A stretch of 64,000 nt of DNA, taken from positions 192,001 through 256,000 of the forward strand of contig JBHLMN010000007.1 in the NCBI GenBank assembly GCA_048938105.1, given 5' to 3'. Positions 6,202-58,866 of this stretch are shown in pieces. The DNA is from Promethearchaeota archaeon (lineage in GTDB: Archaea; Asgardarchaeota; Heimdallarchaeia; Hodarchaeales; Hodarchaeaceae). Position numbers and translations under genes: made by a program. Within the stretch, counting starts at the first letter, position 1, and every line of letters begins with the position of its first letter. The notes under the pieces were generated by a model, which saw only the letters and a program-made list of their open reading frames with translations, made no database searches and was not told the DNA's origin.

Positions 6202-8100
6202 TTAAAGGAAAGCAATCAGAACTAATGGTATTAGAACAATACTTGCGCCTACACTCAATCCTGTAACGATGGTAATACCTACATCCTTAACCTTTTCTTT
6301 CCCAAATCGCTTATTGGTAAATATTCTTACTATTCCACCTATCGAGAGCGAAATTCCCATGTGTGGAGGGAAAAAGAAACCAAAGAGAAGACCAATACCA
6401 ATATTTGGCCCGATCAATGACCCGAGAAATCCCCCAATAATCATTTCCACGAAATTAAGTACTGCTTCAATGTTTCGGGCAGCAAACGCCGTGATAATTG
6501 CAGCATTAAAAGGAAAAGCAGGAGCAGGAAAATCAGGTGTCCCAATACCGAGACTGAACCACAATAAGAGAGCGAAGAAGGGAGTAGTAATCACAGCACT
6601 TAAGTAACCCACAATGAATGAAACGAACATTGCTTTATTATCAGTATTAGTCATCAGAGCTAATTTCGAATAATTAACAATTTGAATACCCTCACGTATT
6701 TCTGCTACTGGCATTGCTAAGTATGGAACATAGGTCTTTCCTGATGTCCCCAAATATGTTGGGAGTAAATCAAAGATAAAAGGGGGGGAAAAAATAGTAG
6801 AACTCTTTGCTGAAGTTGAAACAGCTAAATAAATCAAAAATATTGTGCCTAATCCCATTATCCAAAAAACAATTATGAATGTGAGGATAAAATTGTCTCC
6901 TAATAATTTAAGATAATAAACAAATCCAACACACAGGAAAAATAGCACTGAATATAAAAAAATGAAATTCCAAGCTTTTCTTGTTCGTAAAGTTGCTGTT
7001 ATCTGTTTTTTAAGCGAAACCTTTTCTTCTGTTAGATTCTGTTGGGATTCTTCATTATTAACACTTGACTCGGAGGGATTTTGTTCCTTATTGTTTGAAT
7101 TATTTTGCTTGAAGTTGATTCCAAAACGCTTTAATATTGATTTTCCAACTTTATGTACTATTCCTCCTATTAGAATAGCTCCAAGGATAAATCCAATGAC
7201 AAAAGACAGATAGATATCTTGAAATCCATTCACAAAGAAGGAATAGAAATCTGTTTTTTCCGAAATATCAGCTAAGAAAATTGGACCAAATATAGGACCA
7301 TAGAATAAGATTGAACCAATCGCTGCGGACAAAGAAATTATTGGACGATCAATCAAAAAACCAGCTGAAAATAAACTAATCCCTACAATACCTAATGAGA
7401 TCCCAAAAATCCAACCATTTTCAGGTTGAGAAACATCTAAATAACTAAATCCAGCAAAAGTCGTTATAGCACTAAATAGAAAACCAATTAATCCAGCTTT
7501 CAAGAAGATAGGTAATTTTTCGGCTTTTTCAGTCATCACATTAATTGTTTCAGCCTGTTGGATCTGACTAGGAAAGGGAAATTCGTCATCATCGTGAATA
7601 AAATTATTTCTTATCTTTAAGGCAAACAAAATACCCATAATACCAGGTATGAGCATTAAAAACCAATGAACCATTAAAGGAGTCAACCATGCAGGATTTA
7701 GAATGTCACGACTGTTAATTATTTCTTGTGAAGGGAGTAACCAAGAAGGAACATCAAATCCAATTGATGCGTCGTGATTTTGGGCAAACCAGATCAGAAA
7801 TAATAGCGCGGTACTGGCCTCTGCGGCAATTGAGGCGCCAAAAGAAACTAATACTAGCGTCAAGTTTGATTTGTTATCTAAACCCTTCTGGTTTAAGATA
7901 ATTTTCCCCAGTAATAAGGCAAATATTGCCCCTATTCCAATAGAGACAAATCCCATGGTGATTGACAAATAGAGATTGATGAAATTAAAGAATAACCCAA
8001 TTGGTATACTTATTAATAATACCCAGGTGAGATTGTGGTTCTTTGACTCAAATTGTTCCATCATTTCGGAATTCTGCATGGTTTTCTCCATATAAAACAC
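6202..8100 (-). CDS. OPT/YSL-family oligopeptide transporter-like membrane protein
   Basis: Many TM segments; NLYLSITMGF, FPFPS, LGIGTPDFPAPA motifs resemble the OPT family. Confidence 0.7.
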   Translation of the reverse strand: MFYMEKTMQNSEMMEQFESKNHNLTWVLLISIPIGLFFNFINLYLSITMGFVSIGIGAIFALLLGKIILNQKGLDNKSNLTLVLVSFGASIAAEASTALLFLIWFAQNHDASIGFDVPSWLLPSQEIINSRDILNPAWLTPLMVHWFLMLIPGIMGILFALKIRNNFIHDDDEFPFPSQIQQAETINVMTEKAEKLPIFLKAGLIGFLFSAITTFAGFSYLDVSQPENGWIFGISLGIVGISLFSAGFLIDRPIISLSAAIGSILFYGPIFGPIFLADISEKTDFYSFFVNGFQDIYLSFVIGFILGAILIGGIVHKVGKSILKRFGINFKQNNSNNKEQNPSESSVNNEESQQNLTEEKVSLKKQITATLRTRKAWNFIFLYSVLFFLCVGFVYYLKLLGDNFILTFIIVFWIMGLGTIFLIYLAVSTSAKSSTIFSPPFIFDLLPTYLGTSGKTYVPYLAMPVAEIREGIQIVNYSKLALMTNTDNKAMFVSFIVGYLSAVITTPFFALLLWFSLGIGTPDFPAPAFPFNAAIITAFAARNIEAVLNFVEMIIGGFLGSLIGPNIGIGLLFGFFFPPHMGISLSIGGIVRIFTNKRFGKEKVKDVGITIVTGLSVGASIVLIPLVLIAFL

Positions 8101-24087: not shown

Positions 24088-25398
24088 ATGAGGAATATGA
24101 ATCAACCATCCGAATCTAATCCAAATATCTTATTTATCATCACTCATGATACTGGGGATCTTTTTTATGACAAAGGGATAGAAACACCAAACCTAGATCA
24201 ATTGGCTCGAACTGGTGTAATGTTTACAAATAATTTTTGCATAGCTCCCCAGTGTTCTCCTTCTCGTGGTAGTATTCTCACTGGACAAGTGCCACACACA
24301 CACGGATTAATGGGATTAACAAACTATGGCTGGAATTTGGATTCAAAGATCACAATTGCCAAAATTCTTGCCAAAAACGGCTACTCAACGCATTTAATTG
24401 GATTACAGCATGAACATGAGGATGCAAAAGAACTCGGTTATCAAAATATCTCTGATCGTAACATCATGCCTTGGGTAGATAACGTCGTTCCCCAAGTAAA
24501 CGAATTCTTAACAAGAGCTAATCAGGGGAAGGTTCCACAACCATTCTATTGTGCCATTGGCTTTTTTGATACCCATAGGCCCTTCATTTTTCCTGAGGAT
24601 ATTTCTGTTCCTTTCAAAAACGAAATTTTGGTTCCTAGTTTTCTACCAGACACACCTGAAGTGAGAACGGATATTTCAGAATTATATTCATCGATTAAAA
24701 CAGTAGATAGAGGAATTGGACATATCCTTGACATTTTAAAATCGTGTTCTTACTATGAAAATACAATAGTTATTCTTACCGTTGATCATGGACCAGCTTT
24801 TCCACGAGCGAAATGTACTCTGTATGACACAGGAATTCGGACTGCGCTCATTTTCAGCTGGCCAAAAAAGATTAAGCAAGGAATGATACGGACTGAATTG
24901 ATCTCTAACATAGATTTATTACCATCAATCTTAGATATTGTCGATATTCCGATCCCCGATGAAATACAAGGACATAGCTTCAAAAATCTTCTTTTTAATG
25001 AAGAATATAAGGAACAGGAGTGCATTTTTGCAGAATTAACATATCACGATATTGGCTATAATCCTATCAGAGCAGTTAGAACAAAAAAATGGAAATATAT
25101 CAAGAATTTTAAAGCTCTTGACATATTATTCGAAATACCTGAAGATGTGATCGAAAGTCCATCAGGAAAAGCTTGGCTTAGCAAACATCCTGAATATTAC
25201 TCCACTAGACCAAACGAAGAGTTGTATGATCTGATGACTGATCCAATGGAAGTAATAAATTTAGCTAATAATCCCCAATATCAATCTATCAAACAAAAAT
25301 TAGATAAGAAACTTATGGATTGGTTGAAAAAGACAAATGATCCAATTTTAACGAAGAACTTTATTGAGGACACTTCAAGGAGAATGAAGATTGAATGA
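24088..25398 (+). CDS. Cys-type sulfatase (sulfamidase-like)
   Basis: NILFIITHD, CSPSRGSILTG (CxPxR), DHG..FPRAK.TLYD.G, ELYDL..DP.E..NLA. Confidence 0.92.
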   Translation: MRNMNQPSESNPNILFIITHDTGDLFYDKGIETPNLDQLARTGVMFTNNFCIAPQCSPSRGSILTGQVPHTHGLMGLTNYGWNLDSKITIAKILAKNGYSTHLIGLQHEHEDAKELGYQNISDRNIMPWVDNVVPQVNEFLTRANQGKVPQPFYCAIGFFDTHRPFIFPEDISVPFKNEILVPSFLPDTPEVRTDISELYSSIKTVDRGIGHILDILKSCSYYENTIVILTVDHGPAFPRAKCTLYDTGIRTALIFSWPKKIKQGMIRTELISNIDLLPSILDIVDIPIPDEIQGHSFKNLLFNEEYKEQECIFAELTYHDIGYNPIRAVRTKKWKYIKNFKALDILFEIPEDVIESPSGKAWLSKHPEYYSTRPNEELYDLMTDPMEVINLANNPQYQSIKQKLDKKLMDWLKKTNDPILTKNFIEDTSRRMKIE

Positions 25399-26008
25399 AA
25401 TTATTTGGGCTACCCCACTTTATTTATTCTTAAAATATTGCAATGAGAGTTCATTAGATAAAGTAATTCTTGATTGCGGTGCAGGAGGAGAATCTCCTCC
25501 ATTAGCCCTTTTCTATCAATACGATTACGAAACAAATGGAATTGATATTTCTGATAAAGCTTTAGAGGAATCTCATCTATTTTGTAAGGAGAATAACATA
25601 AATTTAAATATTACAAAAGGAGATATGAGGAAAATTCCGTTTGAAGACGAGTCTATGAGTTTTGTTTATTCTTTAGATTCGATTATATTTTTATCAAAAG
25701 ATGACACTCAAATAGCTATTAAAGAGATTGAAAGAGTCTTGAGAACAGATGGACTGTGTTTTATAAATTTTAAATCGATTGATGATGAAGATTACAATAA
25801 AGGGGAGCCAATGGGCAATAATGAATTTAAACTTGATAATGAATGGACAGAAGGGGAGATGGTATGCTCTTTCTATGAAGATAATGAACCTGATGCTTAT
25901 TTTGGCAATTTTGAAATTCTCCGCAAAGAAAAAAGGATTGTAGATTGTTTTTGTATTGAGAATGGTCACAGAATTGGGTATATTGATTATATTGGTAGAA
26001 AAAAATAA
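25391..26008 (+). CDS. Class I SAM-dependent methyltransferase (paralog of 27664-28290)
   Basis: ILDCGAGG, GDMRKIPFEDES, EIERVL; start overlaps the sulfatase stop. Confidence 0.88.
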   Translation: MNEIIWATPLYLFLKYCNESSLDKVILDCGAGGESPPLALFYQYDYETNGIDISDKALEESHLFCKENNINLNITKGDMRKIPFEDESMSFVYSLDSIIFLSKDDTQIAIKEIERVLRTDGLCFINFKSIDDEDYNKGEPMGNNEFKLDNEWTEGEMVCSFYEDNEPDAYFGNFEILRKEKRIVDCFCIENGHRIGYIDYIGRKK

Positions 26009-26155
26009 TCTATCGTTCAATCACTCATTTTCCCTTTCATAACTTATTTAAAAAGAAATTAAAGGATTTTTAGGGGAAAGATTCAATTCGGGAAGATTTA
26101 AAAAATTCTTTCTCTATAATTACATATTTTCAGGAAGAAAAGTGGTGACAATAGA

Positions 26156-26776
26156 ATGAAAACAAATCAAATTATTAGAATAATAATTCCTTTGGTACTC
26201 CTTTTAGGGGCTGCCACTACCTTTTTTGTGGCAGTTCTGGGCAACCAACAGGCAAATACCTCAGCAGAGGATATACAAAAGGCAAATACAACCACAAGTA
26301 GTTTTATTATGTACCTATATGTAGAAGGCATCCCTGGAGAAGTTATAGAACAAGATCATGAAGAATGGATTGAAGTACTCGCTTATTCCCATAATATACA
26401 AACCCCCTATAATGTTGGCACAGGACAAACTGCTGGAAGCGTAGAGAACGCCCCCCTCCGAATCACTAAGATGGTAGATAAGGCATCTCCCAAATTATAC
26501 CAAGCTTGTTATACTGGAAGTGTGAAACCTTTAGTTGAACTAGATTTCTGCATGACTAATACTGCCCAAGATGTGTTTTACAACATTGAACTTGAAAATG
26601 CCAAAATTGTGTCCGTCCAAGACTTTGGAGTATTATCAGGAGACTATCCAACAGAAACAGTTTCATTCACTTACGAAAGATTCAAATGGACATATATAGA
26701 GTACGATGCTCAGGGACAACCCAAAGGACCTATAGAATCAGGTTGGATCTATTGGAGTGACGAAACCCCTATTTAA
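26156..26776 (+). CDS. hcp: Hcp (T6SS tube-type) domain protein with N-terminal signal/TM segment
   Basis: MYLYVEGIPGE...HEEWIEVLAYSH, ITKMVDKASPKLYQAC..G, FYNIELENAKIVSV, PTETVSFTYERFKWTY...GW are Hcp hallmark motifs; preceded by hydrophobic IIIPLVLLLGAATTFFVAVLG and an N/T/S-rich linker. Confidence 0.9.
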   Translation: MKTNQIIRIIIPLVLLLGAATTFFVAVLGNQQANTSAEDIQKANTTTSSFIMYLYVEGIPGEVIEQDHEEWIEVLAYSHNIQTPYNVGTGQTAGSVENAPLRITKMVDKASPKLYQACYTGSVKPLVELDFCMTNTAQDVFYNIELENAKIVSVQDFGVLSGDYPTETVSFTYERFKWTYIEYDAQGQPKGPIESGWIYWSDETPI

Positions 26777-26811
26777 CCCTTACAAACAAATTATATAGCT
26801 GTTGAATTACA

Positions 26812-27552
26812 ATGAAAATGTCTAAGACATTTTTAATTCCCTTACTCCTATTGATTTTAGCCATTGGTACCTTTCCTACACTAGCTTTCGCAAATACTTC
26901 CAATGAAGAATATATTGAAGTTCACCAAGTGATTCAGAATGGACCTAATATATTGATTGAATTAGATTATGACTTGAGTTCAACTTCTTTACTTGATACT
27001 AATGAATCATTGGCAGTCTTAGTAATATTTAGTGATTCTACAAACGAGGATACTCTCACCATTCAAGCAGCGATGTTATTCTTTCACACGGATGACAATC
27101 AATTTCTCCTTTTTTGGATGCTTGGAGACCCCTTTAAACAAGCCCAAAACTGGCAGGAAGGTACTGAAAATGAGCACTTTCAGACTGATGGTGACCAATT
27201 AACACTCACTTTCATCGAATTCGTAGGTGCTCAGGAACCAGAGATTACAGTCTCAGTATATGCCAGGATTACCTCTAGTGAAATAAATGCCTATACGACC
27301 GATTTTCGAATAGTTCTAGATCAATTCATTGAGGAATTGACAACACAAACTACATCTGAGGAGACTTCTGGCCCCCTGACTACAGGAAAAACAACTTCAT
27401 CAACTACAGGAACAGGAAAAACAGAAAGAACCACATCTACAAAAGAATCATCTCAAACAAAAACGGATATTGCATCAGGATTCACTATCCTCTCAATTTT
27501 TGGTATTCTCCTTTCAGTGGTCATCATAAAAAGATTTACTCGGAAAAATTAA
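26812..27552 (+). CDS. Secreted surface protein with Thr/Ser stalk and PGF-CTERM-like (SGF-TM-basic) anchor
   Basis: Signal peptide ending TLAFA; acidic domain; TTQTTSEETSGPLTTGKTTSSTTGTGKT stalk; SGFTILSIFGILLSVVIIKRFTRKN. Confidence 0.8.
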   Translation: MKMSKTFLIPLLLLILAIGTFPTLAFANTSNEEYIEVHQVIQNGPNILIELDYDLSSTSLLDTNESLAVLVIFSDSTNEDTLTIQAAMLFFHTDDNQFLLFWMLGDPFKQAQNWQEGTENEHFQTDGDQLTLTFIEFVGAQEPEITVSVYARITSSEINAYTTDFRIVLDQFIEELTTQTTSEETSGPLTTGKTTSSTTGTGKTERTTSTKESSQTKTDIASGFTILSIFGILLSVVIIKRFTRKN

Positions 27553-27663: not shown

Positions 27664-28290
27664 TTATAAAGTCTGAATTTTCGTTCCAATATAACTAATT
27701 TCACCCAATTTAAGTTGAATTTCTCCTTCATTATATCTATAAATCACTCTATTTTCTTTATGAAGGAGCTCAAAATTTTTAAAATATGCATCAGCCTCAT
27801 TAATGGTATGAAAAGAATGGAGTGCTGTTTCATTCTCACCTATGGGCAATAAATATTCTCCCTCACCGATTTTTTCACCTCGTTCACCGATCTCTGAATC
27901 TTCCGACATAAAATTGACATAGCATAATCCATTTATTACCAAGACTCTTTCGATTTCTTTCATTGCAATAGAAATATCTTTTTTCGATAGATGCATGATT
28001 GTATTATATGAATAAACAAAGGAAAAACTTTCATCATCAAAATTTAAATCTCTCATATCACCTATCTTAATATTTAGGTCAAGATTATACTTATCACAGA
28101 AATCTTTTGTGTTCTTGATTGCTTGTTCACTAACATCTATTCCAAAGGTTTTATAACCATTTCTGTAAAACAAGTAAAGAGGGGACTCCCTTCCACCAGC
28201 TCCACAATCAAGTACTTTTTTTTCTAGGTTTGTTTTGTTGCATAATCGTAAAAACTCATATAAGGGAGTTGCACGAGAAATAAATTCCAA
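27664..28290 (-). CDS. Class I SAM-dependent methyltransferase (paralog of 25391-26008)
   Basis: ATPLYEFL, VLDCGAGG, GDMRDLNFDDESFSFVYS, EIERVL. Confidence 0.88.
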   Translation of the reverse strand: MEFISRATPLYEFLRLCNKTNLEKKVLDCGAGGRESPLYLFYRNGYKTFGIDVSEQAIKNTKDFCDKYNLDLNIKIGDMRDLNFDDESFSFVYSYNTIMHLSKKDISIAMKEIERVLVINGLCYVNFMSEDSEIGERGEKIGEGEYLLPIGENETALHSFHTINEADAYFKNFELLHKENRVIYRYNEGEIQLKLGEISYIGTKIQTL

Positions 28291-33905: not shown

Positions 33906-34739
33906 TTCCTTTAAAAGGTATTTAATGGCATCCTGAATAGCTTCCCGTATGCCTTTCTTCGGGGCGTTATATCCCCAACCTATTTCTTTCCCATTGATGA
34001 AAATCGCTCTGGAAATTTGATATTTTTCGAAAATCTGTCTATCATCAGTGAAATATTCATGTAAAATGACATCGTCTCCAAATTCTAAAGCAACCTCCCT
34101 TACACGTTGTGCCTCAATGGGCTTACAAAAAGTATCAATGAAAAGATCAATTACTACCTTTCCCTTCACAGCATGAAAATGATAGTTAGGTTCTGGAAAA
34201 CACGGCCGTTCGGCTGATTCATCGAAAACTTTCCAAAGAATTGCCTCTTCATCTAAGAAATCTTTTTCTCCTTCTTTTGTCACTTTTTTACATACGATGA
34301 GGGTAAACCCGTGTTTTTCATAAAACAACCCAGGCATAAACCAAAAATCCTCATAATAATAAGCACAAACTACTAACGCTTTCTTCCCTGCTTTTTTAGT
34401 CTCTTCTTCTGCAGCTTGAAGCAATATACGCCCTATTCCCTTACCTCTTACATTAACAGCCACGTGTTGGCAAAGGATAACCATCAGATCTTTTCCGAGT
34501 GGTCCCCAATGTGAGGACTCTATTGGGATCATATGCAGGAAACCGACTGGTTTTTCATCAAAAAATGCTACTTTTGTTCTAAAACCCTTCAAGCGCATTT
34601 TTTTGTACCATGCACTCCGCTCCTCCGCAGCTAGATCACTTTCTTCTGATTCATGAACATGTGAACAGGTAGCTGTATAATACTGCCCCTCCTTCCCAGC
34701 ATTTTCAAAATTTTTGATTACTATGGCTATCATTTTCAA
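33903..34739 (-). CDS. GNAT N-acetyltransferase with C-terminal thioredoxin-like domain
   Basis: VRGKGIGRILL acetyl-CoA loop; FYEKHGF; AIFINGKEI. Confidence 0.8.
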   Translation of the reverse strand: MKMIAIVIKNFENAGKEGQYYTATCSHVHESEESDLAAEERSAWYKKMRLKGFRTKVAFFDEKPVGFLHMIPIESSHWGPLGKDLMVILCQHVAVNVRGKGIGRILLQAAEEETKKAGKKALVVCAYYYEDFWFMPGLFYEKHGFTLIVCKKVTKEGEKDFLDEEAILWKVFDESAERPCFPEPNYHFHAVKGKVVIDLFIDTFCKPIEAQRVREVALEFGDDVILHEYFTDDRQIFEKYQISRAIFINGKEIGWGYNAPKKGIREAIQDAIKYLLKE

Positions 34740-58170: not shown

Positions 58171-58866
58171 GTGGAGAATAGAAACATGAGTCGAAAACAT
58201 AACCCAGAGATTACGTGTACTTGGGATAAAACAGCTGACTGCATGAATTGCACGATAAAGGGGGAATTGGATTGTAAATGGAGTCGTTCGTTGCTTTTAC
58301 GTTTTTATAAGGGGGGATCACTAGCAATGATTTCAGGAGGATTGGGCCTAATTATTGTGGGATTGTTTGTTAGTTGGTTACCAATAATAATCTATGGTGC
58401 TTTCTGGATTTTCTTCTTTGGTTTCTTTGAAATTCGTGTTCTTTGTAGTCATTGTCCATATTATGCAGAAGAAGGAAGGATACTCCATTGTTTAGCGAAC
58501 CATGGAACCATAAAACTATGGGACTTTCATCCTGAACCCATGAATATTTTTGAAAAACTAGGATTTCTTGGTGGTGCATTATTTTTTGTCTCATTTCCAG
58601 TCTTGGCCGAGCTTTGGGGAATTTTTCAATTATGGAATGGCATGCTAGAGATTACTGTGATCTTTCTTCTTATCTGCGTTTTAACTGTTCTCACTATAGG
58701 AGGAGGTGGTTATTTTTTTGTTTTCTTGCGAAAGAATATATGTCCAAGATGTGTTAACTTCTCGTGTCCCTTGAATTCAGTACCAAAAAAGGTTGTAGAT
58801 GCCTATCTTAAAAAGAATCCAATCATGCGAGAAGCATGGGAAAAAACAGGTTATCAACTCGACTAA
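58171..58866 (+). CDS. Cys-rich membrane protein of unknown function
   Basis: C..CMNC..C, LCSHCPYY..LHC, CPRCVNFSCPLN around about 4 TM helices. Confidence 0.75.
   Translation: MENRNMSRKHNPEITCTWDKTADCMNCTIKGELDCKWSRSLLLRFYKGGSLAMISGGLGLIIVGLFVSWLPIIIYGAFWIFFFGFFEIRVLCSHCPYYAEEGRILHCLANHGTIKLWDFHPEPMNIFEKLGFLGGALFFVSFPVLAELWGIFQLWNGMLEITVIFLLICVLTVLTIGGGGYFFVFLRKNICPRCVNFSCPLNSVPKKVVDAYLKKNPIMREAWEKTGYQLD

Follow-up and report, generated by a model that had tools for sequence, protein, structure and literature searches.

What is a protein of the bacterial type VI secretion system (T6SS) doing behind an export leader in an archaeal genome, directly next to a gene for an anchored surface protein? 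The question is raised by two adjacent genes at positions 26156–27552 of a 64,000-nucleotide stretch of DNA from a Promethearchaeota archaeon (hereafter the window). An earlier note, made from the letters of this stretch alone, had taken the DNA to be probably of Asgard origin, and the names carried by homologues agree. The first gene encodes an Hcp protein with an N-terminal leader, and the second encodes a secreted protein with a C-terminal sorting signal. We assign a probability of about 0.6 to the reading that the two products form a T6SS-independent complex at the cell surface, in which a Sec-exported, probably N-terminally tethered Hcp ring is combined with a sortase-anchored partner.

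The Hcp gene is an open reading frame (ORF) of 206 aa plus stop codon at 26156..26776 on the forward strand, and its product is an Hcp protein in identity and in fold. PF05638 (T6SS_HCP) spans residues 53–180 with its complete model (1–129 of 129; E 2.1e-34, 119 bits against a cut-off of 23.5 bits), and TIGR03344 matches above its curated cut-off of 58.9 bits (E 3.5e-27, 95.3 bits). A profile of the family finds the solved Hcp 7FCF at E 4.9e-37 from sequence alone. The AlphaFold2 (AF2) model, built from 24 homologues, is confident over residues 50–200, with a predicted local distance difference test score (pLDDT) mostly of 80–94. Foldseek recognizes the Hcp beta-barrel in this model, with Hcp1 (4W64) as best match at E 2.7e-14, followed by 7FCF, 3EAA, 8YUN and 1Y12 (template-modelling (TM) scores by target 0.75–0.87), and essentially all of the 80 PDB matches at E < 1e-3 are Hcp. 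Model, structural matches and profile together place the Hcp (TssD) domain at residues 52–206 (26309..26773, +). The complete Hcp domain that the earlier note had recognized by eye is therefore clear both to hidden Markov models (HMMs) and to fold comparison.

Full-length homologues of both ORFs exist by the dozen (E 1e-40 to 1e-107), so the reading frames are not products of chance. A search of 5.8 billion proteins returned ~33 full-length relatives of the Hcp protein, each of ~200 aa. The named ones belong to Heimdall-, Hod-, Hermod- or Promethearchaeota, and homologues bear the NCBI label ‘Hcp family type VI secretion system effector’.

Canonical Hcp stays in the cytoplasm and has no leader. 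The archaeal protein departs from this on both counts, with a conserved leader and flanking charges that predict an N-in/C-out orientation. Its leader (residues 1–28; 26156..26239, +) consists of a basic n-region, MKTNQIIR, and a 20-residue uncharged helix, IIIPLVLLLGAATTFFVAVL, predicted to act as a signal-anchor. The uncharged run extends from I9 to L28 and is followed by GNQQANTSAEDIQKANTTTSS; AF2 draws a helix at residues 13–27 with low confidence. A polar linker (residues 29–51; 26240..26308, +) joins the leader to the Hcp domain and carries N-x-S/T sequons at N34 (nt 26255–26263) and N44. The basic-hydrophobic N-terminus and polar linker described in the earlier note are thus both present, and the motif MKTNQxxRIIIPLVLLLGxATxFxVAVLxNQQVNxS is common to all ~33 full-length relatives.

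Sequence around the start codon supports the long form of the protein. A Shine-Dalgarno-like motif, GGTGA (26144..26148, +), lies 7 nt 5' of the ATG at 26156 and favors this upstream start, and by the same reading of the sequence no such motif stands in front of the internal ATG at 26309. Further upstream, 52–59 nt 5' of the Hcp start codon, is a TATA-box-like element, TTTAAAAA (26097..26104, +), which may serve as promoter element of the gene. Both signals lie where the earlier note had placed them. Public sequencing runs that contain the stretch are sediment and mangrove DNA metagenomes only, and none of the public runs with RNA contains it.

Comparison of 18 orthologues indicates that the leader is conserved more strongly than the Hcp domain itself. 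The hydrophobic run (residues 9–28) has a top-residue frequency of 0.78 and an entropy of 0.86, the Hcp domain 0.66 and 1.20, and the linker varies apart from its sequon (top-residue frequency 0.43). P12 and G18 occur in every sequence, and 17/18 have an uncharged run of exactly 20 residues. The flank before this run has a charge of +2/+3, with no acidic residue in 15/18 orthologues, while the flank after it is net acidic in 15/18 and net basic in none. By the positive-inside rule these charges place the N-terminus inside the cell and the Hcp domain outside. The N34 sequon recurs at the aligned position in 13 of the 18, as expected of an archaeal extracytoplasmic protein. Beyond this set, a basic-hydrophobic leader begins 13/13 more distant Asgard homologues. 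Met52, with which a leaderless form would have to start, gives way to Ala or another residue in many of the orthologues, which excludes the short form. A start at MYLYVEG with an unconserved N-terminus had been named as an outcome that would sink the proposal; instead the leader turns out to be the best-conserved part of the protein. Taken together, the conservation and topology signals show the leader to be real and, as far as sequence comparison can tell, under selection. Its unusual conservation and fixed transmembrane length favor retention over cleavage, and in this clade the helix most likely stays on the protein as its membrane anchor.

We also considered a class III (pilin-type) signal, in which a short basic leader ends in G/A directly before the hydrophobic helix, at the site of prepilin peptidase. 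It was rejected: the junction MKTNQIIR-IIIPL lacks a Gly or Ala in all 18 orthologues.

If this Hcp belonged to a secretion machine, the other parts of that machine should be encoded nearby or elsewhere in the genome. The earlier note had recognized none within the 64 kb of the window, and the same holds for the whole source genome, which comprises 5.85 Mb in 65 contigs and is 99% complete. Only a single Hcp match was found in it. Searches for the sheath families TssC/VipB (PF05943) and Phage_sheath_1 (PF04984, phage-type) gave no match there, with positive controls responding, and neither did those for VgrG/Phage_GPD (PF05954), PAAR (PF05488), gp25/TssE (PF04965) and TssK (PF05936). The T6SS and contractile-marker search of the genome was therefore negative for a set of families that did not include the contractile injection system tube family PF06841. 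Across the archaeon’s family, TssC (PF05943) and VgrG (PF05954) were without a match in 21/21 genomes, three of which are closed as single contigs. A complete T6SS elsewhere in the genome, which could have claimed this Hcp as its own, did not come to light, and by these profile searches T6SS and contractile parts are absent.

The partner gene (26812..27552, +; ORF of 246 aa plus stop codon) begins 35 nt past the Hcp stop codon on the same strand. It has every part that the earlier note had ascribed to it, including a Thr/Ser stalk and an SGF-transmembrane-basic tail. From sequence reading, a Sec-type signal peptide occupies residues 1–27 (26812..26892, +) and ends in LAFA before NTS. It is poorly conserved (top-residue frequency 0.42, entropy 1.95), as cleaved signal peptides usually are; the globular domain that follows has values of 0.70 and 1.10. 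This domain, residues 28–178 (26893..27345, +), is modelled by AF2 as a beta-sandwich ectodomain (pLDDT ~80–92 over residues 65–170) and bears the conserved motifs AAMLFFHT and FLFWMLGDPxxQAQNWQxGxENEHF. A Foldseek search of the PDB with the model gave no match below E 1e-2. A wide VIA search with the same fold returned assorted domains like those of the immunoglobulin (Ig), fibronectin type III (FnIII) and carbohydrate-binding module (CBM) kinds at Z ≤ 6.5, and the ESM Atlas returned bacterial clusters at TM ~0.5–0.6. Neither Pfam nor NCBIfam gave a significant match to the partner encoded in the window, for NCBIfam at E up to 1, and none of these searches assigns it to a family. The 28 homologues are all from Asgard archaea where they are named, and the family is an orphan.

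A Thr/Ser-rich low-complexity stalk (residues 179–221; 27346..27474, +; pLDDT < 50) follows the ectodomain; its length in orthologues ranges between about 10 and 50 residues. The protein ends in a C-terminal sorting signal of the PGF-CTERM/Heimdall-CTERM type (residues 222–246; 27475..27549, +), SGF-TILSIFGILLSVVII-KRFTRKN. G223 is invariant in the aligned orthologues, PGF is the commonest reading of the motif among them, and the Heimdall-CTERM model NF045529 matches 5/14 orthologues, with a best E of 1.8e-4. The sorting enzyme is itself encoded in the genome, to judge by two ORFs that match the heimdallarchaeosortase model NF045528 at 261 and 252 bits (cut-off 130). Both genes are intact, one on contig 38 at 34325–34597 (-) and the other on contig 64 at 58358–58633 (+). 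A third sortase-like stretch, on contig 39 at 7848–8054 (+), is broken by an in-frame TGA. Some 30 ORFs of the genome end in the same succession of Thr/Ser-rich stalk, PGF, helix and basic tail, which together with the two heimdallarchaeosortases indicates that a sorting system is in place.

The spacer before the partner gene (26787–26820) holds no Shine-Dalgarno-like motif, and a TTATATA lies ~20 nt before the partner ATG; a second in-frame ATG is found at 26818. These features suggest two possible templates for translation of the partner, a bicistronic transcript and a near-leaderless internal one. The pair as a whole is bracketed by two paralogous class-I S-adenosylmethionine (SAM) methyltransferase genes (Methyltransf_11), at 25391–26008 (+) and 27664–28290 (-), whose products are 49% identical. 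They stand in opposite orientation and have no evident functional link to the pair. A Methyltransf_11 gene lies just upstream in the related Heimdall loci L002 and L004 too.

Does the partner belong to the Hcp, or is it a chance neighbor? In seven contexts fetched from other Asgard assemblies, a homologue of the partner stands directly 3' of the Hcp gene on the same strand, while the genes that flank the pair vary between lineages. We then scanned 399 species genomes of the phylum, with adjacency judged by comparing coordinates; the Hcp profile matched 25 and the partner profile 19. The two genes were adjacent on the same strand in 17/17 primary loci. For a second, divergent paralogue the scan found adjacency in 4/5 loci, and a local hmmsearch supplied the fifth, in genome G060. 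The scan also found the adjacent pair in two genomes that belong to other families, and one more genome with an adjacent pair, from family f19, came out of the local hmmsearch, which covered 13 fetched loci. In two further f19 genomes the downstream gene is alike in build, with a signal peptide, a length of 229–237 aa, a C-terminal helix and a basic tail. Within the family of the source archaeon, the pair was found in 16/20 other genomes. In all, the two genes stood side by side in some 30 Asgard loci. The question put by the earlier note, whether the pair is conserved across Asgard genomes, can thus be answered with yes, and the opposite case, in which the two genes never co-occur, did not arise.

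Maximum-likelihood trees of 17 Hcp proteins and of their 17 neighbors contain the same groups, with support of 85–99 in the Shimodaira–Hasegawa-like approximate likelihood-ratio test (SH-aLRT). Clade A unites the window with L002 and L004–L008, clade B holds L014, L015, L017 and L018, and clade C holds L016 and L023–L026, while L022 stands alone. The recurrence of these clades in both trees indicates that the pair was duplicated and diverged together. Joint divergence of this kind is what would be expected of products that work together and does not by itself prove contact, but strict adjacency and co-divergence are shown by the loci and trees compared here. A complex prediction with Hcp residues 48–206 and partner residues 28–182 scored 0.25 against a mark of 0.32, which speaks neither for nor against binding.

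Several sister genomes (G062, G065, G068, G073 and G060; loci L022–L026) carry the second leader-Hcp/partner pair, the Hcp of which resembles a ‘QGxIxGS...KITWTWxDGGI’ subtype of bacterial Hcp. The source genome has the first pair only. In the closed Heimdall genome GCA_020348965.1 (locus L003), a run of N at 6940–7050, either a gap or withheld bases, breaks up the partner gene. This run accounts for its annotation as ‘partial’, with 108–159 aa, and no real truncation is visible.

From these elements we infer a scheme of export, leader retention, ring assembly and Hcp–partner contact in which the two genes would act as one operon-like unit for a T6SS-independent cell-surface complex. The Sec machinery would insert the Hcp protein so that the N-terminus stays in the cell and the Hcp domain faces outward, and the 20-residue leader helix would hold the domain at the membrane, release being less likely. 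The protein would probably be N-glycosylated at N34, near the membrane, and the Hcp domain could assemble into a six-fold ring just above it. The partner would be secreted by way of its cleaved signal peptide and processed at its SGF/PGF-transmembrane-basic tail by a heimdallarchaeosortase, after which it would stand at the surface on a glycosylated Thr/Ser stalk that differs in length between orthologues. The beta-sandwich might then dock on the Hcp ring and retain or organize it; a role as anchor, base or cap, as proposed earlier, is likewise a conjecture. The whole might serve as scaffold or lattice of the envelope, as a platform for adhesion or docking, or as a cargo-binding ring. The central idea of the earlier note, that this Hcp is exported or membrane-tethered and reused outside the T6SS, gains support from the conservation of the leader, the absence of a T6SS and the pairing, with export itself deduced from these.

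Of the other explanations, the one that comes nearest to this scheme differs over the fate of the leader. An ordinary Sec signal peptide could be cleaved off, leaving a soluble extracellular Hcp ring kept on the cell only by its anchored partner, as in S-layer canopy/stalk pairs; we hold this to be unlikely, yet still a serious minority view. Residue 29, at position -1, is G, S or T in 17/18 orthologues and position -3 is mostly V or A, a pattern that fits a signal peptidase I site in most of them and makes cleavage possible. More distant Asgard clades have ordinary AxA-type signal peptides, with lipobox leaders also found among such clades and among bacterial-looking relatives, and a dedicated anchored partner makes most sense if the Hcp itself is unanchored. 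A merely cleaved peptide would not be expected to surpass the mature domain in conservation, with a fixed run of 20 residues and invariant P12 and G18, and in this the leader is unlike the partner’s signal peptide; one orthologue, moreover, has N at position -1. A tethered Hcp ring with a sortase-anchored partner remains our preferred reading, and other points besides the possible cleavage site and the AxA-type relatives weigh against it. The absence of a T6SS rests on HMM searches of draft genomes, the present one being 99% complete and three relatives closed. In three genomes of one Asgard family of the same class (G049–G051; loci L019–L021), the Hcp gene is followed not by the ~240-aa partner but by a secreted protein of > 640 aa that extends beyond the fetched stretch, so that partners of different kinds are possible for the Hcp. 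The modelled fold of the partner is a generic beta-sandwich and uninformative on function, and its SGF-variant tail in the window finds no match to the Heimdall-CTERM model NF045529. Export, glycosylation, ring assembly and contact are, finally, predictions.

A related idea would spread the ring into a sheet. Hcp hexamers could be the p6 units of a hexagonal, S-layer-like canopy that the stalked partner anchors in the membrane, in the manner of SlaA/SlaB or the sortase-anchored S-layer glycoprotein of haloarchaea. Hcp domains do form six-fold rings in solved structures, single chains of six domains occur among the relatives, the partner’s combination of stalk and lipid anchor is typical of archaeal surface-layer proteins, and the module is widespread in the family. 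The model of the S-layer glycoprotein HVO_2072 even matches 3/14 partner orthologues weakly (E 0.05), but these matches come nowhere near a cut-off, and the Thr-rich stalk and tail alone probably account for them. The pair is missing from four of the other 20 family genomes, all four of them incomplete (70–88%), and we regard such a lattice as doubtful. Still less probable is a ring that serves as a cargo-binding or decoy device, its lumen receiving a secreted substrate of the archaeon or the Hcp-dependent effectors of attacking T6SS bacteria. T6SS Hcp rings are known to bind effectors in their lumen, the run labels point to a sediment habitat common to many bacteria, and leader-bearing Hcps, some with lipoboxes, occur in bacterial-looking sequences. 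The proposal is nonetheless purely speculative, since no cargo or toxin gene is linked to the pair, whose flanks vary between lineages, and the high sequence conservation is unlike an arms race. We give almost no credence to the view that the leader is an artefact of annotation and that Met52 starts a cytoplasmic Hcp, a relic of a lost or horizontally acquired T6SS beside an unrelated neighbor. An in-frame ATG does stand exactly where canonical Hcp begins, and the NCBI name suggests a T6SS protein. Yet Met52 is not conserved, whereas 18 orthologues conserve the 51 residues before it, which 13 distant ones have as well; Shine-Dalgarno and TATA motifs precede only the upstream ATG; the neighbor co-occurs and co-diverges; and a relic would not be expected to be retained intact across several Asgard families.

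The earlier note had cautioned that exported Hcp-domain proteins might exist in other lineages, and this caution was well placed. When 1.84 billion representatives were searched with a profile built from 31 Asgard sequences, 21,159 proteins matched at E < 1e-3, of which 631 also reached E < 1e-30. Among the 148 best new representatives (P0074–P0221), for which Hcp domains per chain were counted, 65 have one domain, 16 have two, 11 have three, six have four, five have five, 41 have six and one has seven. The single-domain representatives of 183–274 aa nearly all have Sec-type or lipobox leaders, two being leaderless. To judge from these sequences, exported Hcps are widespread beyond Asgard archaea.

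By Pfam, the six-domain proteins contain six complete Hcp domains, and some add extracellular PKD or Big_13 domains. They look like single-chain, pseudo-hexameric Hcp rings. Their chains measure ~900–2160 aa (e.g., P0074, P0075, P0076, P0079, P0082 and P0081), and many begin with an N-terminal ‘RRRLxxExLExRxLL’ leader, which presumably recalls those of planctomycete secreted proteins; others have no leader. No T6SS gene was found in the 10 kb downstream of the six-domain relative L027. The P0110 contigs carry adjacent genes of three Hcp domains each (546 and 570 aa), both with an N-terminal hydrophobic leader. This 3+3 gene pair adjoins an archaeal thiolase/HMG-CoA-synthase/OB-fold trio and giant FG-GAP surface proteins, on a contig that looks archaeal.

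The recurring total of six domains suggests that the working unit of the exported forms is one six-fold ring and not a long tube. A long tube or fibre, which the earlier note had entertained beside a ring, appears less likely than a single ring, given the six or 3+3 domains per chain in relatives and a leader on every subunit that would hinder stacking. We tentatively extend this to a broader conjecture, which we think rather less likely to be true than false. Leader-bearing Hcps could constitute a large, undescribed branch of tube proteins that work outside the cell without a contractile machine. In Asgard archaea, six helix-bearing subunits might form a membrane-tethered ring, as a surface pore, docking platform or lattice unit, together with a co-evolving sortase-anchored partner, and elsewhere the branch might take six-Hcp, 3+3-Hcp and lipoprotein forms.

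Our search of the literature found no paper on exported, archaeal or tandem Hcp, and ‘Hcp’ in papers on Heimdall archaea means hybrid cluster protein. The Hcp-partner module is a real, conserved and undescribed variant of a well-known kind of protein that is misleadingly annotated in public databases. Hcp is treated as a hallmark of the T6SS, and databases label the archaeal copies “T6SS effector” or “tube protein”. If our reading is true, a conserved, exported, T6SS-independent Hcp would correct that annotation and warn against inferring a T6SS from Hcp alone. It would also mean that the phage-tail-tube fold has found a new use, as a building block of the cell surface. In the archaea closest to eukaryotes, of whose surface almost nothing is known, it would define a component made of two proteins. 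The result would surprise specialists of the T6SS and of archaeal cell surfaces alike. The relatives with six, 3+3 or two domains and export signals suggest a wider, seemingly undescribed family of extracellular Hcp rings, which would offer natural single-chain rings for structural and nanotechnology work.

How does the module compare with systems already known? The Hcp/TssD of bacterial T6SS (PF05638, TIGR03344; 7FCF, 4W64, 1Y12, 3EAA) has the same domain over its full length, at ~30% identity to solved Hcps, and by analogy six-fold rings would be expected of the archaeal protein likewise. Unlike bacterial Hcp/TssD, the archaeal protein is extended at its N-terminus by a conserved stretch of 51 residues that includes a helix of transmembrane length and a glycosylation sequon. 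In the solved structures of the engineered fusions 4KSR, 6AP1 and 7O42, Hcp1 sits at the C-terminal end of hexameric ATPases, which indicates that N-terminal extensions are compatible with the ring. The host also differs, being an archaeon, and the gene is coupled not to a sheath, VgrG, PAAR, baseplate or TssK gene but to that of an anchored beta-sandwich surface protein.

The partner resembles the substrates of the Heimdall-CTERM/heimdallarchaeosortase system (NF045529, NF045528), a cousin of PGF-CTERM/archaeosortase A (TIGR04125), in having the same stalk, (P/S)GF, helix and basic tail. All three parts of the C-terminal signal found in NF045529- and TIGR04126-type tails are present, although the window copy reads SGF and falls below the Heimdall-CTERM model. 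The demonstrated cases of processing and lipid attachment are ArtA substrates of haloarchaea, not Heimdall-type ones.

In Sulfolobales, SlaA (the canopy) and SlaB (a stalked membrane anchor) are encoded by adjacent genes and form a two-component layer. The Hcp-partner module would be analogous in joining a self-assembling outer unit with a stalked, anchored protein across two adjacent genes. It differs in that no relation of sequence or fold to SlaA/SlaB was found, the assembling unit is an Hcp domain that may anchor itself, and any lattice would be hypothetical. A last comparison concerns phage T4 gp27 and VgrG, each chain of which has two tube-like domains, so that a trimer presents six in a pseudo-hexameric ring. 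The window protein has a single domain, and its multi-domain relatives differ from baseplate hubs in being true Hcp repeats that carry export leaders or PKD/Big_13 domains. Like gp27/VgrG, the relatives with 2, 3 or 6 Hcp domains per chain can be read as different ways of totalling six.

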